A stretch of DNA of 64,000 nt from a virus: the IMG/VR virus record IMGVR_UViG_3300043427_003402; one strand, written 5' to 3'. A model generated the notes under the pieces. It made no database searches. It worked only from the letters and a program-made list of their open reading frames with translations, and was not told where the DNA came from. The translations under genes and the position numbers were made by a program. Position 1 is the first letter of the stretch. Each line of letters opens with the position of its first letter. Below are positions 3,061-57,345 of this stretch, in pieces.

Positions 3061-3074
3061 GGTTTCCTCCTTCT

Positions 3075-3212
3075 CTAAGGGAACATCCTGCGGTAGCCGT
3101 CGGCTACCTCTTTGGCGACCGCCGGAGGTACGCCGTCCGCCTTCGCCGACTCTTCGATGACGACGGGCAGCACGTGTTTTGCGACTGCGTAGATCACGGC
3201 TAATAAGTCCAT
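3075..3212 (-). CDS. 45-aa hypothetical protein (below ORF-track cutoff)
   Basis: MDLLAVIYAVAKHVLPVVIEESAKADGVPPAVAKEVADGYRRMFP*; TAATG overlap with upstream stop; fills the gap exactly. Confidence 0.55.
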   Translation of the reverse strand: MDLLAVIYAVAKHVLPVVIEESAKADGVPPAVAKEVADGYRRMFP

Positions 3213-3872: not shown

Positions 3873-4272
3873 GCTTGACCTCCTCTTTTACCAAGGCGGA
3901 CATCGCCGCCCACATCGCCCGCAGAGCCGGGCTACGCCGCACCACACCGATCCCGGCAGTGGTGCGAACTGCGTTACGCAGCTCACCCCCGAGCCCAAGC
4001 ATTACCGCTGCGGGCCCGACCACCGTGAGCACTTCCAGCGCCCACATAGTGTAAGCCTCCGGCGTCCACGCCACCACCGGCATCCCGAATGGCCCAAAGA
4101 GCCACTCGCGCAAAACCTTTTTGCCCCCACCCGGGGACGGGGAAGCGGCAGCTTTTTGCAGCTGGGGCACCAGTTCCTTGGCTAGCAGTTGGAACTCCGC
4201 CAGCCGATCCACCGTGATCAGCCCTTCGTTGATTGCCGCTTCGATTGCTTCACCTGCGTATGCGTTGACCAT
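3862..4272 (-). CDS. hypothetical protein
   Basis: 136-aa ORF, GAGGAGG RBS. Confidence 0.65.
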   Translation of the reverse strand: MVNAYAGEAIEAAINEGLITVDRLAEFQLLAKELVPQLQKAAASPSPGGGKKVLREWLFGPFGMPVVAWTPEAYTMWALEVLTVVGPAAVMLGLGGELRNAVRTTAGIGVVRRSPALRAMWAAMSALVKEEVKHAC

Positions 4273-4304
4273 TTTACGACCTCCTCGCCCCTTGGGGCTG
4301 TATC

Positions 4305-4337
4305 ACGCAGCATTTATTACGCGCCCTGCGCTGGCGC
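4305..4337 (-). ncRNA. intergenic H-type pseudoknot
   Basis: minus strand GCGCC-aGCGCAG-GGCGC-GUAAUAAAUG-CUGCGU: P1 GCGCC/GGCGC, loop pairs with downstream CUGCGU; same geometry as array copies. Confidence 0.6.
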
Positions 4338-4353
4338 CGGTAACTGTTTAGCC

Positions 4354-4794
4354 TTACCCTATCACAAGCGCCCCGTCGGGCACTTGCTCCATGAACGAGT
4401 CAAATGCCACTTGCATGCGCCCCATGGCGTGATCAGGCACCGGGTTTGTCCGCACCAAATTCCGCGCACGGCAAACGTCGTGCGGTGTGTTGAACACCAC
4501 CAAGTTGACGGCGTAACCGGCCGCCGTCAACTTACTGATTAACGCTTCGCGAAACTGCGGGTGCAGGTTCGTATCGCTGACGTAGAGCGGCACGCCTTGC
4601 CCGATTACCGCGTCAACCAACGCGGTGTGTAACGCCACAGCTTGCGGCGTGCACGCTTGGTTTGTGGCGTCCCCCGACACCGCATGGCGGCAGTCATCGA
4701 GGTTAACGTTAACCCCGCCATTTTGCGCCACCTGATTTGTGGCCCAGTACGTTTTACCGGAACCAGGAATACCGACCGTGATGAATGCTTTCAT
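4354..4794 (-). CDS. P-loop kinase, polynucleotide-kinase-like domain (T4 Pnk kinase/AAA_33 type)
   Basis: GIPGSGKT Walker A, NLDDCR, SDTNL, CRARN..R..PVP lid motif; no phosphatase domain; start MKAF with AAAGGAG RBS. Confidence 0.8.
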   Translation of the reverse strand: MKAFITVGIPGSGKTYWATNQVAQNGGVNVNLDDCRHAVSGDATNQACTPQAVALHTALVDAVIGQGVPLYVSDTNLHPQFREALISKLTAAGYAVNLVVFNTPHDVCRARNLVRTNPVPDHAMGRMQVAFDSFMEQVPDGALVIG

Positions 4795-4835
4795 TACTTC
4801 TCCTTTCCGCAAACCTAAAGGAAAAACCTTATTTC

Positions 4836-4984
4836 GCCGGCGCGAGCTGGCGATGAGGGAAATAACCATCACGCACACACACGCTCCCTACTAAGGAAGT
4901 GAATGTGAATGATAGTTATTCCCCTCATCGCCAGCCCGCGCTGACTCAGGGTGCCACGTATTTATCCTGCGCCCGTGACGGCGC
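4836..4984 (-). ncRNA. structured RNA unit 1: pseudoknot (4953-4984) + long hairpin (4836-4945)
   Basis: inverted repeat with both arms shortened relative to units 2/3 yet still paired. Confidence 0.6.
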
Positions 4985-5008
4985 GGAGCTAAAGGAAAAA
5001 CCTTATTT

Positions 5009-5177
5009 GCCAGCGCGAGCTGGCGACGAGAAGAATAACCATCACGCACACGCGCACGCACATACTCCCTCTTAAGGAAGTAAATGTGAGTGTGAATGTG
5101 AATGATAGTTATTCCCCTCATCGCCAGCCCGCGCTGACTCAGGGTGCCACGTATTTATCCTGCGCCCGTGACGGCGC
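5009..5177 (-). ncRNA. structured RNA unit 2: pseudoknot (5146-5177) + ~60-bp hairpin (5009-5138)
   Basis: 37 uninterrupted pairs then a few mismatches; 9 G-U wobbles on the minus strand. Confidence 0.65.
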
Positions 5178-5201
5178 GGAGCTAAAGGAAAAACCTTATT
5201 T

Positions 5202-5370
5202 GCCAGCGCGAGCTGGCGACGAGAAGAATAACCATCACGCACACGCGCACGCACATACTCCCTCTTAAGGAAGTAAATGTGAGTGTGAATGTGAATGATA
5301 GTTATTCCCCTCATCGCCAGCCCGCGCTGACTCAGGGTGCCACGTATTTATCCTGCGCCCGTGACGGCGC
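5202..5370 (-). ncRNA. structured RNA unit 3: pseudoknot (5339-5370) + ~60-bp hairpin (5202-5331)
   Basis: identical to unit 2; begins 5 nt after the stop of 5376..6269. Confidence 0.65.
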
Positions 5371-5375
5371 AAAAA

Positions 5376-6269
5376 TTAGATCAATTTCTTTTCGAGCATC
5401 TCCTTTCGTGCCCTTTTGGCGGCACTGAGGCTGCCACCAAGGCAGCCGTGCGCTTTCGCGATGTTCGCGATTTGCTGCGCTTGGTCCCTTGATAAGGACC
5501 GACCACTCCATTTTATTTCACCTTGGTCCCTCTCCGGGACCAAGGTGAATCCGTAGGCCGTTGGCCCAACCCATAACACAGTTGCCTCGCCCGGTCCGTT
5601 CCGGACCGCGGTCCTTAAGCCGACCGCTTCTTGCGCCCGAGCACAGGCGCTTTGCGCGGCTTCCGCCGCACCGAAGGCTTTTGTCCGGCTTTCGCCGGAC
5701 AAAAGCCAGGCGGCCTTTTCGGCCGCTTCTTCTGCCTGGCGGAGGAGGCTGACAGCCTCCTCCGCGTCTTCGACGGCCGCTTTGCCGTCGAGGACGCCCC
5801 AATCAACTTGGTCGGCGACCCCCGCCGCCGTTAGCGCGTCGCGGAACGCGCTCAGGTGCCGACTTCCAAACCCTTGTTCACGGGTCAGGGGCCCGTCTAA
5901 ATCGTATGGGTCGTAACACAACACCACGCACGACTCCGCCGCCGCGCCCCGCCCCCGACGCGCCCCGCCCGTGGGGCGATGGATCTCGACCCGGACTTGC
6001 CCGTCCGGGTAGACACACCATCGAGTCCGCCCGGTGCTTGTCTCGTGGTAAACTGCGTGGTCCTCATTAAAGTGGTCAAACCGGTATGCGGGACCCCATG
6101 TCCCGTGGCTCATGCCACAGGCCGCCATAGCGGCCGCCGCTATGGCGGCTTCCGTTTTAAGTTGGAGCACCTGCTCCAGCGCTAGGCTTGTCGCCCACTC
6201 GTGCCCGAAGGCACGGGCCACTTTGTAGGCCGTCTCTAATTGTTTTTCTGTGAATCCTTGGAAACCCAT
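5376..6269 (-). CDS. hypothetical protein, first gene of the early operon
   Basis: start reassigned to MGFQGF (AAAAGGCGG RBS); 297 aa with Ala/Glu coiled coil. Confidence 0.7.
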   Translation of the reverse strand: MGFQGFTEKQLETAYKVARAFGHEWATSLALEQVLQLKTEAAIAAAAMAACGMSHGTWGPAYRFDHFNEDHAVYHETSTGRTRWCVYPDGQVRVEIHRPTGGARRGRGAAAESCVVLCYDPYDLDGPLTREQGFGSRHLSAFRDALTAAGVADQVDWGVLDGKAAVEDAEEAVSLLRQAEEAAEKAAWLLSGESRTKAFGAAEAAQSACARAQEAVGLRTAVRNGPGEATVLWVGPTAYGFTLVPERDQGEIKWSGRSLSRDQAQQIANIAKAHGCLGGSLSAAKRARKEMLEKKLI

Positions 6270-6300
6270 GATTAACCGCCTTTTGCTCGCGACCGTTAGC

Positions 6301-6559
6301 CGTGCTGACGCCAGCACGTTTACACCCCGCACCACGTGTAGGTGGTCGCTTGCGGGGCTAAGCAAGTTAACGTCATGCTCAGGACGGGTTGCTTACTGGT
6401 CAGACTCACCACGTCTGACAGGAGTAGTCGATCAGTCAAGAGGTCATTGCGACTACTCTAAGCAATGACTTTGGAGCAGCTTTAACGTCGTACTCAGGAC
6501 GCCCCTTTACAGCTCAACCCCTAAATAGCGAATCACCCTGCACGCAAACACGTACAGGG
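6301..6559 (-). ncRNA. highly structured non-coding leader: two pseudoknots (6359-6386, 6474-6501), three-way junction (6389-6465), hairpins
   Basis: near-duplicate CGUCCUGAG(CAU/UAC)GACGUUAA with downstream UGCUUA/UGCUC; stems TTGCTTA/TAAGCAA, GTCAGAC/GTCTGAC, GAGTAGTCG/CGACTACTC, CCCCGCA/TGCGGGG, CGTGCTG/CAGCACG. Confidence 0.55.
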
Positions 6560-6565
6560 ATCCTC

Positions 6566-6602
6566 AACTATATATACCGGAAATATGGCCCCATTATGGG
6601 CC
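6566..6602 (-). promoter_or_regulatory. candidate early promoter (AT-rich GGTATATATAG next to GGCCC-ATAATG-GGGCC hairpin)
   Basis: AT-rich patch immediately upstream of the structured leader; position inference only. Confidence 0.3.
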
Positions 6603-53868: not shown

Positions 53869-56800
53869 TTAGCCGCACTTAGAGAAGCCGCAACTGAGGT
53901 CAGAACACTTGCAGCAGCCTTCCTCAAACTTTAAGGCACTGCCGCAATCTGGGCACTCAGGACTCTCACCAAAAATGGTGACAGCCTCATCAACATAAAC
54001 TTGCTCGGTCGACAAGCTTAAATTGCTGAACGACAACTCCGTTTGCAACGCGTCAAGAGCTTCTGAGCCGGCGCCTTGGAAGAACGCGGGAGCAGCTTTG
54101 AGCGCCTTGCCCAGACCGTCCGGGATGCTCAAGACTTTGTTCGGCCCCAAGCCCGCTTGGTCTGCGCTACGGATACCGATCAGCGTCCGTGCTACGTCAT
54201 CCACCGGCGCCCCGTGCTGCAACGCCATGGACGCCAAGCGCCCAATGGCCTCAGCCAAGCTGTGGATCGTACCACCGGAGCGGCCAATCGTGAGCAGCAC
54301 CTCGCGAAGACCAAGCTCGTCGTAGTTGAAGGTGGTCAACATTTTCCCGTTACCGGTGTGGATCACGCTGGTGAAGCCCGCCAACGTCTCGGGACGCGGG
54401 CGCGGCGTACCACCCCTAGTCGCCGTAGGCACCGTGGCTTCCAACTGCGCAGCTTCGGCTAGCTCCTTGCTGGACTTTGTACCGGTGGTAAGCGGTTGGA
54501 ACGAACGCGAACCGTCGCGGTATACGGTGATGCCTTTGCACCCCAGAGACAACGCCATGTCGTACGCGTCAAGCACGTCTGCTACTGTGGCGGTGGCAGG
54601 CAGGTTAATCGTCTTAGACGTGGCCGAGTCGTTAAACCCTTGCAAAATCGCCTGCATCTTAACGTGCGCGTCAGGGCGTATGTCACCGGCGGTAACAAAC
54701 ACCTCGCACAGCTCAGTTAGCTCTTCTTTGCCGAGCCAGTAGTCTAGCGCGCCCGCAGCTGCAGCCGCGTCTACCGAGCCTTGATGCCGCGCCACGATCT
54801 CAAGAATCTCATCGCGTTCAGCTTCGTTAAACGCCGAGAGCGCCGCTACAAACTCTGGATCGCCGTCGCGCATCTCCAAGCCAGCCTGGAAACGCGAAAA
54901 GACTAAGCCAAACAACGGCTCGCAGCCGCCAGTTGTGTCGTGAAACACCGACAACGTCCCTGTTGGCGCAATCGTCGTGGTCGTCGAGTTGCGAATACCG
55001 GTTTCGGTAACTCGGGTTTGGCACTCGACGTAAGTGTCCATGATATGGTGCCAAATCGGTTCCAGCGCTCTTACGGCGTTATCGGAAGCCGTCTGCGCCT
55101 TTTCAATTCGACGCGCCAGCAGGTCTTGGTGGAACGCAACCGACTCGTCCCAATTATTTACAAAATAGGGATAGGCGCCGCGCTCAGTCGCCAAGTCGAT
55201 AGACGCGCGCTTGGCCTCGGCGTCGATAAACGCGTACAGCGCAGCAGCTGTGTTGCGGCCTTCTCTTGAATCGTACGCAAGCCGCAGTTTGAACAACGCC
55301 CGTGCAAGGCCCATAATACCGAGCCCGAGCTTACGGGTAGTCATAGCGATCTCTTTAATTTGTGGAACTTTCGGAACGTACGCGTTGGCTTCTACCACGT
55401 TGTCCATAAACCGAATACTCAGATGAACGGCCGCGCGCAAACCTGACCAGTCAATAATCGCGTCGGGCCCGGAGCCAATAACGAACTGGTCCAACGTGAT
55501 TGAACCTAAGTTGCACGACTCGTAAGGAATCAAAGGCTGTTCCCCGCAGTTCGCAGACAGTATCCCGTCGTGCTCACCGCAGGCGACAAAGTACCGGTGC
55601 GTGTCGTCTACGGTCCCGTTGTACACGTCCGCAAGCTCGCCTGTTCTTACAACTTTTACAACTTTGTGGTTTACAACAGCCTGGTCTTTTTCAGGACGAA
55701 CCCAGCCTAGTCGTTTCATAACAGTGTATTTTGAGCAGCCCACTTCAGCGGCTATTTGCTTAAAGCTCTTGCCACTTTCCCGAAGAGCGGTCAGCTGAGC
55801 GTCGTCGAGGTCGCGACGATAACGGCCATTGTTTTCACCGTCTGTAGGGATTAAGTAGAGCGGGTTACGCTCGTCCCAGACACCGTACATAGGGTTCTTA
55901 TCGCCCTGCATGTGCTCCGAGTTATGCTCAGTACCTAGCTTAATTTCAAGATTCGTAGGCCGGTTGTCACTTCTATCCTCGTTAATGTGGTGACAGTGTT
56001 CAGCCGGATAGTCAGGGCGCCGGCCCGTGTGGCCGCTGACCATGACGTGATGGTACAGCGGGGCCTCAATGCCGTTCGATATTCTCAGGTAGCCTTTCGT
56101 GTTTGCCTTATACCGGTAAACGCTCATCAAAGAGTCGTTAGGTTTCAAGTCTTGAACTTGAACCTTCATACCGTTCCGCAGGTACAAATTATGGTCTAAT
56201 GTGGCCTTCAAGACTGTACCGTCGTCCAAATGTAGCTCTGCAACCTCAACCGCCTGCCGGGTTAACCGGGGCGCGCGCATCAGCTTGACCACGAAATTAC
56301 CTTGATCGTCTTGGGACAACACTTGTACACCGGTGCCGCGCTCCGCAAGGTCTTTGAAAGAGACGTGCCCGTCAACAGTCCATACCTGCGTGTCCCCAGT
56401 CCAGCACGGATTTGTCGCCTCGTACGCACCCAATCTTGGAACAGGGTTGTCACGGTTCATGCGGTCGATAAAGGCCAGACCAGGCTCGCCTGTTGCGTGT
56501 GCCCGCTCCGCGATGTGGCGCCACACCTCACGCGCGCTCAGAAATTCCCCCGTCGGTCCCGAGCGCGGATTGATTAACTCGTAGCGGTCGTCGTCGGCTT
56601 CGAGCGCCGTCAGGAACGCGTCAGTGACTGCAACCGAGACGTTAAAGTTTGTCAGCTGCGACAAGTCGCTTTTGAGGTCAATGAACTCCAAAATGTCAGG
56701 CGAGTCGACACGCAAGATGCCCATGTTCGCGCCGCGCCGAATACCGCCTTGCTTAATAGCCTCTGTGGCGGCGTTAAAAACTTTCATAAAAGGAACTGGC

Positions 56801-57270
56801 CCGGAACTCGCGCCTTTCGTGCTGCCCACAGTGTCGTTTTTGGGCCGCAGGCGCGTGAAAGCGAAGCCGGTTCCGCCACCTGTTTGATGTATAAGCGCCG
56901 CGTGCTTTATCGTGTCAAAAATGCCGGAGAGGTCGTCTTCCACAGGCAGTACGTAGCACGCGCTGAACTGGCCAGTCCGGATACCCGCGTTGGCAAGCGT
57001 CGGCGAGTTAGGCAGAAACTGCCGCCCGCGCATCAATTCAAAAAAAGCTCTGTGGAGCTCTGCAACTTTATCCGCGCCGCCAAACGCGGCTTCGGCCGCC
57101 GCCATCACTTCGGCAGTGCGCCAGTACATCCCGTCTACGTCTTCTAAAATTGTCTGGTCGTCTAACTTGTTGAAATAACGTTTCTCCATGACACTGACGG
57201 CGTTTGCCGACACCGGCGGCGCGGTTTCGACCCACGCCTGGACATCCGAAGGTAAATCCGACAAAAACAT
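53869..57270 (-). CDS. nrdJ: class II (B12-dependent) ribonucleotide reductase with intein, C-terminal TSCPD and Zn ribbon
   Basis: FLPNSPTL, SACYV, GGGTG, RRGANM, ATNP^CGEQ, TIAPTGT, SKTINLP, KGITVYRDGSR, CPDC...C; start MFLSD. Confidence 0.9.
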   Translation of the reverse strand: MFLSDLPSDVQAWVETAPPVSANAVSVMEKRYFNKLDDQTILEDVDGMYWRTAEVMAAAEAAFGGADKVAELHRAFFELMRGRQFLPNSPTLANAGIRTGQFSACYVLPVEDDLSGIFDTIKHAALIHQTGGGTGFAFTRLRPKNDTVGSTKGASSGPVPFMKVFNAATEAIKQGGIRRGANMGILRVDSPDILEFIDLKSDLSQLTNFNVSVAVTDAFLTALEADDDRYELINPRSGPTGEFLSAREVWRHIAERAHATGEPGLAFIDRMNRDNPVPRLGAYEATNPCWTGDTQVWTVDGHVSFKDLAERGTGVQVLSQDDQGNFVVKLMRAPRLTRQAVEVAELHLDDGTVLKATLDHNLYLRNGMKVQVQDLKPNDSLMSVYRYKANTKGYLRISNGIEAPLYHHVMVSGHTGRRPDYPAEHCHHINEDRSDNRPTNLEIKLGTEHNSEHMQGDKNPMYGVWDERNPLYLIPTDGENNGRYRRDLDDAQLTALRESGKSFKQIAAEVGCSKYTVMKRLGWVRPEKDQAVVNHKVVKVVRTGELADVYNGTVDDTHRYFVACGEHDGILSANCGEQPLIPYESCNLGSITLDQFVIGSGPDAIIDWSGLRAAVHLSIRFMDNVVEANAYVPKVPQIKEIAMTTRKLGLGIMGLARALFKLRLAYDSREGRNTAAALYAFIDAEAKRASIDLATERGAYPYFVNNWDESVAFHQDLLARRIEKAQTASDNAVRALEPIWHHIMDTYVECQTRVTETGIRNSTTTTIAPTGTLSVFHDTTGGCEPLFGLVFSRFQAGLEMRDGDPEFVAALSAFNEAERDEILEIVARHQGSVDAAAAAGALDYWLGKEELTELCEVFVTAGDIRPDAHVKMQAILQGFNDSATSKTINLPATATVADVLDAYDMALSLGCKGITVYRDGSRSFQPLTTGTKSSKELAEAAQLEATVPTATRGGTPRPRPETLAGFTSVIHTGNGKMLTTFNYDELGLREVLLTIGRSGGTIHSLAEAIGRLASMALQHGAPVDDVARTLIGIRSADQAGLGPNKVLSIPDGLGKALKAAPAFFQGAGSEALDALQTELSFSNLSLSTEQVYVDEAVTIFGESPECPDCGSALKFEEGCCKCSDLSCGFSKCG
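55549..56406 (-). mobile_element. intein with HNH endonuclease (286 aa)
   Basis: starts CWTGDT, block B TLDH, HHINEDRSDNRPTNL HNH, VYNGTV block F, ends SAN before Cys+1. Confidence 0.9.
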
Positions 57271-57345
57271 AGCTACCTCTAATAAAGCGAGCACGACAAA
57301 CGCGTCCTTTTAAACGCGCGCGTAGGGGTACCTGCGGCAAACTAC

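Follow-up and report, generated by a model that had tools for sequence, protein, structure and literature searches.

The sequence analyzed here, referred to as the window, is a stretch of 64,000 nucleotides from IMG/VR virus record IMGVR_UViG_3300043427_003402, which belongs to a large phage. Six H-type pseudoknots lie within 2.2 kb of it. All six, proposed in a preliminary description, could be read on the minus strand with the expected sequences, and every helix was verified base by base. Their intergenic placement was confirmed for six of six, with 6707, 6272, 5376, 4803, 4354 and 4272 as the likely starts and stops of the surrounding genes. Each knot also adjoins a structured RNA or a gene, in agreement with the earlier idea that the knots precede a cargo. 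The assignment of the region to an early operon found no support in the analyses made. Genes for baseplate and tail proteins precede it on the same strand. No sigma-70 promoter or terminator of note was detected on the minus strand, and no tRNA genes were found in the window. An AT-rich box at 6566-6578 was considered as a repeated promoter and rejected, as it is not repeated as such. A blastn search of phages with the window returned no relatives, its large terminase showed less than 30% identity to anything in the phage collection searched, and a scan of viral contigs with its baseplate protein was likewise negative.

The genes around the knots were then compared with protein family collections. 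The open reading frame at 5376-6272 (minus strand, 298 aa) had no match in Pfam, PHROG, PADLOC or NCBIfam, and a scan of metagenome contigs yielded no relatives. The gene at 4354-4803 (minus strand) encodes a P-loop polynucleotide/RNA kinase (Pfam AAA_33, 7.6e-20; PHROG 505 polynucleotide kinase, 1.5e-20), whose best NCBIfam match was the kinase part of bacterial Pnkp (7e-9). This kinase aside, the ORFs around the array of knots received no Pfam, PADLOC or NCBIfam assignment. Between the two genes, three cargo hairpins occupy 4839-5331 on the minus strand (approximately 5202-5331, 5009-5138 and 4839-4945); they form near-perfect stems of about 50 to 65 pairs with many G.U pairs. Folding gave an energy of -109.7 kcal/mol for the minus strand (z, -11.9) versus -87.3 for the plus strand.

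The six knots had been described as one related set, but they separate into two distinct motif families: family A, with four copies of types 1 and 2, and family B, with two copies of type 3. The type 1 copies of family A lie at 5339-5370, 5146-5177 and 4953-4984 on the minus strand, each with a 5-bp S1 (GCGCC/GGCGC), a 6-bp S2 (GUCACG/CGUGGC) and the connector AGGAUAAAUA. The first of them begins 5 nt after the stop codon of the 298-aa ORF, and the last is followed by the kinase gene directly downstream of the array. The independent type 2 variant at 4305-4337 (minus strand) has the same S1, a different S2 (GCGCAG/CUGCGU) and the connector GUAAUAAAUG; the ATG at 4272 lies on its 3' side, preceded by a Shine-Dalgarno sequence and, before that, a 5-bp hairpin (4287-4298). 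Four matches to the type 1/2 pattern were counted in the window versus 0.00 expected, although type 1 contributes only one independent example, its three copies being 100% identical as parts of a 193-nt tandem repeat. In all four copies, the loop pairs with the 6 nt that begin one base past AUAAAU. The family can be described as GCGCC-loop-GGCGC-N3-4-AUAAAU-R-antiloop, for which we found no catalogue entry. A likeness of type 1 to CRISPR type I-C repeats was considered and dropped, since loop and tail covary and the would-be spacers are identical hairpins.

The search patterns for relatives of both families came from the window itself, so that conservation of the fixed letters is uninformative and only pairing and the letters after the fixed ones count as independent evidence. 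Outside the window, 9 of 86 unique matches to the family A pattern paired at six of six positions in one fixed register, and none did so at 11 other registers. Such knots, with covarying loop and tail, recur in other tailed phages, one carrier having a large terminase gene, and also in dicistronic picorna-like RNA viruses, where they lie 9 to 12 nt past the ORF1 stop.

We asked how family A compares with known catalytic and antitoxin RNAs. Features in common with the pistol ribozyme (RF02679; env25, PMC7373991) are a first stem of 5 bp, a loop of 6 nt engaged wholly in a 6-bp pseudoknot and UAAAU in the A-rich stretch right after the stem; in addition, the knots of this analysis sit beside putative self-cleaving ribozymes. 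In pistol, however, the tail lies 17 nt on rather than 10 to 11 nt. Family A lacks P2, P3 and the G-U cut site, nothing is conserved past its tail, and no match to RF02679 was obtained at E values up to 10; the identification as pistol was therefore discarded. Mimicry of ToxI-like antitoxin RNAs had been proposed as well, and the gene that closely follows the array does match Zeta_toxin weakly. In type III antitoxin arrays, tandem repeats of about 34 to 40 nt stand directly before the gene of an endoribonuclease toxin. Here the repeat unit measures 193 nt, most relatives are single copies, and the neighbor, best matched by RNA kinases, is a P-loop RNA kinase and not an endoribonuclease toxin, with no PADLOC match. 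A catalytic RNA, or an antitoxin RNA for this kinase, is thus largely refuted, and we regard it as scarcely credible.

Family B was found at 6474-6501 (copy A) and 6359-6386 (copy B), both on the minus strand and both with a loop of 8 nt. Each has a 4-bp S1 (CGUC/GACG); S2 measures 5 bp in copy A (GAGUA/UGCUC) and 6 bp in copy B (UGAGCA/UGCUUA), and the connectors are UUAAAGC and UUAACU, respectively. The type 3 core pattern matched twice in the window versus 0.02 expected. When 31 copies of other phages were used to build a covariance model in which S2 was represented as base pairs, copy B scored 35.0 bits (E value, 3.6e-5) and copy A 33.6 bits (7e-5), the next best match reaching 10.8 bits; this agreement is partly circular, the 31 copies having been fished with a pattern taken from the window. 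Between the two knots, a structured RNA at 6387-6473 (minus strand) comprises an 8-bp hairpin, the loop of which engages a downstream segment of 8 nt in a further H-type pseudoknot, and a 7-bp hairpin. Within it, UAAGCAA (6389-6395) is able to pair with the tail of copy B in an alternative 7-bp helix that competes with S2. A looser descriptor scan over the whole window returned no additional convincing copies.

Directly downstream of copy B, at 6289-6358 on the minus strand, we identified a candidate HDV-like self-cleaving ribozyme that appears to be previously unreported. Its helices could be verified (P1 of 7 bp with a G.U pair at the cut site, P2 of 6 bp, P3 of 3 bp, P1.1 of 2 bp and P4 of 7 bp) and together form the nested double pseudoknot P1-P1.1-P2-P3-P4. 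J4/2 (GCUAAC) supplies a candidate catalytic C. Rfam RF02682 scored the fold at 24.9 bits, under the gathering score of 44. Cleavage is predicted 5' of G6358, and the last base of copy B is position -1 of this cut. Because it ends exactly there, copy B would form the 3' end of the upstream piece.

We compared both knot families and their surroundings with Rfam. At the gathering cutoffs, no match was obtained in the window or in 11 carrier loci. With E values up to 10, the knots still matched no family, nor did the structured RNA at 6387-6473, and the sole matches were microRNA-precursor models on the long hairpins and the subthreshold HDV-like fold. Both knot families are widespread and uncatalogued.

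Family B proved common in phage contigs and prophages, where the scans picked up many copies with covariation. Among 52 matches with 8-nt loops, taken as an unselected set, six of six S2 pairs showed changes on both sides. There were 58 double-change cells, versus 21 ± 5.8 in shuffles (none of 500 shuffles reached 58), and the covariation score was 0.303, versus 0.06 to 0.12 at slid registers. Loop-tail pairs covary in both families across independent viral copies, in line with the earlier claim that loop and tail stay complementary while their sequences differ, and the proposal of a reusable, self-contained RNA module held up. The wider phage family keeps UUAAAC-UG or UUAAAC-UA as its spacer. 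Pseudoknot-positive matches in genomes came mostly from Bacillota, Mollicutes and Saccharibacteria, groups known to possess RNase J, and none came from gamma- or betaproteobacteria.

The strong conservation of letters in the stem and the single-stranded connector across unrelated viruses (GACG-UUAAAC-U in one family, AUAAAUA in the other) and the repeated placement of copies inside one operon could also be explained by specific recognition, the knots serving as protein binding sites. The partner, from the phage or its host, might be a nuclease for processing, a chaperone, an RNA polymerase acting in antitermination or an export or sorting factor. However, the motifs span eukaryotic viruses and many bacterial phyla without an obvious common partner, and RNA-virus polyproteins were the only protein family shared among carrier contigs. 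Moreover, coremin, to which family B is compared below, works without proteins in published in vitro assays. We consider a protein binding site distinctly improbable.

Family B copies showed a marked position relative to genes: 45 of 84 distinct copies sit 0 to 20 nt after a stop codon, with a mode of 5 nt. This spacing is just beyond the footprint of a terminating ribosome. A spacing of 5 nt in phages, or 9 to 12 nt in the RNA viruses, is also that of frameshift and readthrough stimulators, and coremin variants are known to stimulate -1 frameshifting and to block scanning ribosomes (PMC10321173, PMC10520033). The knots might accordingly control translation at gene ends by stalling or releasing terminating ribosomes, by blocking rescanning into the next segment or by promoting recoding. 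Such a role would leave unexplained repeat copies 2 and 3 and both family B copies of the window, which follow noncoding RNA rather than an ORF, and neither a slippery site nor an extended frame was found past the stops. We rate this explanation as very unlikely.

The same positions bear on a further alternative, in which the knot mainly serves as a cap. Once ribozyme cleavage or termination has released the upstream RNA, the knot would form its base-paired 3' terminus and shield it from 3'-to-5' exonucleases without acting as a 5'-to-3' roadblock. In the window, the predicted HDV-like cut falls immediately after copy B, whose last base is position -1. In one carrier locus with four family B copies, each lies ahead of a type III hammerhead (two of these reach the Rfam gathering score), and the hammerhead cut falls about 8 nt past the knot. 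A U-run follows immediately in 13 of the 84 copies, and the distance from the upstream stop, with its mode of 5 nt, is the tightest positional rule. On the other hand, knots in Enterococcus prophages directly follow a terminator hairpin and U-run and thus are part of the downstream unit, and in many copies nothing but a short, unstructured leader separates the knot from an ATG, leaving no apparent means of generating a 3' end. In addition, the property tested for coremin is directional, 5' to 3'. A function mainly at 3' ends therefore seems unlikely to us, if less so than the alternatives above.

We favor a model in which very stable knots at boundaries within one long transcript both block enzymes moving 5' to 3' and cap RNA ends, and we give it about an even chance of being right. 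Mechanical 5'-to-3' blocking appears the most likely function because family B is homologous with coremin. In the knots, the loop of a GC-rich stem of 4 to 5 bp pairs with the tail, and the A-rich connector (UUAAA or AUAAAU) is positioned for the minor groove of the stem. By homology to coremin, we infer that the knot would resist enzymes that thread RNA in the 5'-to-3' direction, such as an RNase J-type exonuclease, end-tethered scanning RNase E or RNase Y, or ribosomes. The base-paired terminus of the knot would leave no single-stranded 3' tail. Knots and HDV-like ribozyme together would divide the transcript into separately stable pieces, namely, a leader RNA, mRNAs and the three long hairpins, and the kinase encoded at 4354-4803 may act on the 5'-OH product of the ribozyme. 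Besides the likeness to coremin, the model draws on the covariation of S2 in family B, the single register at which family A matches pair, the carriers of family A, the spacing after stop codons and the carrier groups with RNase J. It also draws on the family B copies that stand ahead of hammerheads and on another copy that lies 6 nt ahead of a DUF2800 RNA. Copy B would not guard a downstream 5' end, because the predicted ribozyme would cut it off the downstream RNA. Several observations count against the model: the U-runs after 13 of 84 family B copies suggest a 3'-end role too, and S2 of copy B faces competition from the alternative 7-bp helix. To our knowledge, Xrn1 is absent from bacteria, which also speaks against it.

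A broader version of the model is more tentative, and we regard it as possible but doubtful. Both families would then be true bacterial translocase-resistant RNAs, family A being a second, previously undescribed class common to tailed phages and picorna-like RNA viruses, and knots, HDV-like ribozyme and RNA kinase would constitute a host-independent system in this phage to cut, cap and rephosphorylate pieces of a long transcript. Exonuclease-resistant RNAs have so far been a topic of eukaryotic RNA viruses, and the papers that we could search described none from phages. If the model is true, a fold of 28 to 33 nt common to plant viruses, picorna-like viruses and phages of many bacterial phyla would point to a general physical stop for RNA-threading enzymes. 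It would offer a hypothesis, open to testing, for the way in which phages give different parts of a polycistronic transcript their lifetimes without host signals, could explain the siting of self-cleaving ribozymes in phage genomes and would provide a very small stabilizer or insulator part for RNA engineering.

The closest known system is coremin (xrRNA-C), an Xrn1-resistant RNA of plant viruses that occurs in beny-, cucumo- and many other RNA viruses (Dilweg et al., PMC6546385, PMC10520033, PMC10321173). Xrn1 and scanning ribosomes were both halted by it in published tests; the Watson-Crick variant (xrRNA-WCC) stimulates -1 frameshifting (PMC10520033, PMC10321173). For type 3, the preliminary likening to exoribonuclease-resistant RNAs goes beyond analogy: stem and spacer start (CGUC..GACG-UUAA) agree with the coremin motif (PMC6546385, PMC10520033), and the pairing of loop and spacer resembles that of the Watson-Crick variant (PMC10321173). 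Both copies have an hp1 stem identical to that of BNYVV (PMC6546385), with a C-G closing pair, and thus fall within the coremin range of 3 to 5 bp with a 5' pyrimidine/3' purine closing pair. Together with the UUAAAC-U of the wider phage family, this stem equals a coremin sequence in PMC10520033. The window copies begin their spacer with UUAA(A), and their loops are within the 8 nt that coremin tolerates. They also share tandem and intergenic placement and a helix directly downstream, an 8-bp hairpin 4 nt after copy A and P1 of the HDV-like fold immediately after copy B. Their loops, CUGAGCAU and CUGAGUAC, depart from the coremin consensus YGAD (YGNNAD for 6-nt loops): Y at the start and A in the penultimate position agree with it, but U takes the place of G at the second position, and one loop ends in C. 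Published 8-nt coremin loops break this consensus too (PMC10520033). Compared with the coremin spacer UUAAACUAC, in which A15 to A20 are essential, copy A reads UUAAA-G-CUG, with one extra connector base, and copy B reads UUAAC-UUG, with C in place of A17. These departures at coremin-essential positions (the second loop base and, in copy B, A17) also count against the favored model. Further differences are an S2 of 5 to 6 bp instead of 3 bp, a double-stranded DNA phage as the carrier rather than an RNA virus and the many phage copies that have no downstream hairpin.

Both families also resemble triplex-type H-type pseudoknots such as those of viral frameshift sites (BWYV, for example) and of preQ1-I riboswitches, in having a short, GC-rich S1, a short or absent first loop and a third loop whose A-rich sequence would fit the minor groove of S1. 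They differ from these in their conserved letters and in the absence of an Rfam match, of a slippery site and of a ligand pocket, the latter because the loop is fully paired. Finally, the candidate ribozyme at 6289-6358 can be compared with the theta (minimal HDV-like) ribozymes of tailed phages (Kienbeck et al. 2024, PMC10879173). It differs from them in doubling as the 5' leader of an ORF, in scoring below the Rfam gathering cutoff and in that the RNA upstream is a pseudoknot-capped noncoding RNA and not a tRNA. It shares with them the nested double pseudoknot, the G.U pair at the cut site and GCUAA in J4/2, and, like them, it would act on a structured RNA directly upstream by trimming its 3' end.

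The sequences of the six minus-strand pseudoknots of the window matched the preliminary description, and every base pair was confirmed by script. Three type 1 knots (5339-5370, 5146-5177, and 4953-4984) combine a first stem (S1) of GCGCC/GGCGC with a loop-to-tail pairing (S2) of GUCACG/CGUGGC and the connector AGGAUAAAUA. The type 2 knot (4305-4337) has the S1 and AUAAAU connector of type 1 with an S2 of GCGCAG/CUGCGU, and the type 3 knots (6359-6386 and 6474-6501) have an S1 of CGUC/GACG, 8-nt loops, and an S2 of 6 and 5 pairs, respectively. The type 1/2 pattern occurred four times in the window versus 0.00 expected and the type 3 core occurred twice versus 0.02 expected; scans of the full 64-kb window with relaxed descriptors gave no further convincing copies. 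Membership in a 193-nt tandem repeat accounts for the identity of the three type 1 copies. Although the six knots had been described as a single related group, they form two families instead, family B (type 3) and a second, separate family A (types 1 and 2).

The window derives from a large, novel tailed phage and encodes baseplate J and tail sheath proteins, a large terminase <30% identical to that of any phage in the searched collection, split multisubunit RNA polymerase pieces, and ribonucleotide reductase. No relatives were found by blastn against phages, with the baseplate protein against viral contigs, or with ORF 5376-6272 against metagenome contigs. An HNH endonuclease-like segment, an intein-like or homing insert, interrupts the ribonucleotide reductase large subunit (53869-57294, minus strand). 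The baseplate and tail genes precede the knot-bearing stretch on the same strand, so the earlier designation of this stretch as an early operon is unproven. There, the family B knot at 6359-6386 (copy B) terminates at the base immediately before a well-formed candidate HDV-like self-cleaving ribozyme (6289-6358, minus strand), in which all helices are present, with a G.U at the cut site and GCUAAC as J4/2, and which scored 24.9 bits versus an Rfam cutoff of 44. This candidate doubles as the leader of ORF 5376-6272, which starts at 6272 and whose stop codon lies 5 nt ahead of the first family A knot. The 193-nt units carry three tandem hairpins (4839-5331, minus strand) with stems of ~50 to 65 pairs, including many G.U pairs; each is far more stable on the minus strand, and the third copy departs from the first two by changes on one side of a pair only, with the pairing preserved. 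The repeats are followed by an RNA kinase gene (4354-4803, minus strand), then by the fourth family A knot and another gene. The encoded P-loop protein has a kinase domain only and most closely resembles RNA 5'-kinases (Pnkp kinase domain and PSTK); its gene shares an operon with the predicted ribozyme, cleavage by which would produce a 5'-OH end. The interval separating the two family B knots (6387-6473, minus strand) contains an additional H-type pseudoknot, with two 8-bp helices, as well as a 7-bp hairpin. Here, UAAGCAA (6389-6395) can base-pair with the copy B tail, so that two folds compete.

Viral contigs were scanned for family B using the stem, a 4- to 8-nt loop, and GACG-UUAAA as the query, which yielded 122 matches, 56 of them with 8-nt loops. 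In the unselected 8-nt-loop set, both sides vary at all six proposed S2 pairs. Double-change cells numbered 58 versus 21 ± 5.8 in shuffles (observed value reached in 0/500), and the covariation score was 0.303 versus 0.06 to 0.12 for slid registers. By a rival explanation, the knots would be protein-binding sites. The carriers are mostly long dsDNA contigs (20 to 130 kb), and two or three copies per contig are common. When run on the window, a model built on 31 copies from viral contigs found only the two window copies (35.0 and 33.6 bits; next best, 10.8).

The feature common to knot sites is a boundary between RNA segments. Over 84 distinct family B copies, a stop codon was found 0 to 20 nt upstream in 45 (mode, 5 nt) and a start codon 10 to 60 nt downstream of 35. 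A knot 5 nt past the stop would sit just beyond the terminating ribosome, and this spacing fits a fold that ribosomes need not open; a translation-termination device is a rival reading. A U-run directly follows 13 of the 84 copies, and a hammerhead core follows 5. A Firmicutes contig (L403) carries four units of a family B knot followed by a type III hammerhead (2089-2176, 3071-3158, about 5040-5118, and 5590-5669, minus strand), with the cut site ~8 nt past the knot; two of the four hammerheads reach the Rfam cutoff. Where a ribozyme or terminator finishes the RNA, the same knot would give a blunt, paired 3' end; a pure 3'-end cap is among the rival readings. At another locus (L380), a DUF2800 RNA lies 6 nt past the knot, and in Enterococcus prophages a terminator precedes it. 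In these prophages (L357, 175-300, plus strand; L414, 113-240, plus strand; L358), the family B knot is followed by another knot, built like family A (stem CGUGG/CCACG), that runs up to a structural gene's Shine-Dalgarno sequence. Elsewhere (L368, 3037-3130, plus strand; L359), a family B knot and a U-rich spacer precede a putative minimal HDV-like ribozyme without P4, recognized by eye. At L361 (~1793) and L386 (~5135), the motif is flanked by CRISPR-like direct repeats, as if it were a phage-derived spacer.

For family A, a pattern scan gave 86 unique matches. Six of six loop-tail pairs formed in 9/86 at a single register, set by the base that follows AUAAAU, and in none of the 86 at eleven other registers. 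More loop variants were gained from a metagenome scan. No Rfam family matched family A; that the knots are themselves a ribozyme or an antitoxin, the ToxI type having been proposed earlier, is largely excluded. Among the carriers are several dicistronic picorna-like RNA viruses that encode RdRp and helicase in ORF1 and a dicistrovirus-type capsid in ORF2; in these, the knot begins 9 to 12 nt past the ORF1 stop. Relatives of these viruses retain the knot at this position and add a tandem second one, whose GCACC/GGUGC stem shows that S1 covaries as well. In a set of these viruses (L416-L427), two tandem family A-type knots open the intergenic region within the first 110 nt past the ORF1 stop; one relative has AUAAGU replacing AUAAAU, and more distant ones have altered stems. 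Other carriers are dsDNA phages, one with large terminase and ParB, and hairpins follow the knot as in the window. A separate, abundant leader family, present in several copies per contig on many metagenome contigs (including L236, L239, L242, L283, and L291), consists of the family A stem, a GAGGAGG loop, AUAAAUACCC, a strong Shine-Dalgarno sequence, and ATG; it had no hit in Rfam.

Every function proposed here for the knots is one that we infer. In an unnormalized sample, well-paired genome hits came mainly from Bacillota, Mollicutes, and Saccharibacteria, with none in gamma- or betaproteobacteria, a distribution that fits RNase J as the target. Judged by its sequence, family B is coremin-like: its fixed letters are those of the coremin motif, given as GUCCGAAGAC-GUUAAACUAC for plant RNA viruses (PMC10520033). 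We found no report of coremin-type elements in phages in the literature searched, and published coremin searches were restricted to RNA viruses (PMC6546385, PMC10520033, PMC10321173). A Watson-Crick coremin variant with loop-spacer pairing drives frameshifting, and coremin itself stalls Xrn1, blocks scanning ribosomes, and accommodates loops as long as 8 nt (PMC6546385, PMC10520033, PMC10321173). Because of this tested behavior, we favor, by analogy, the reading that the knots would act as mechanical roadblocks to enzymes that thread RNA from 5' to 3'.
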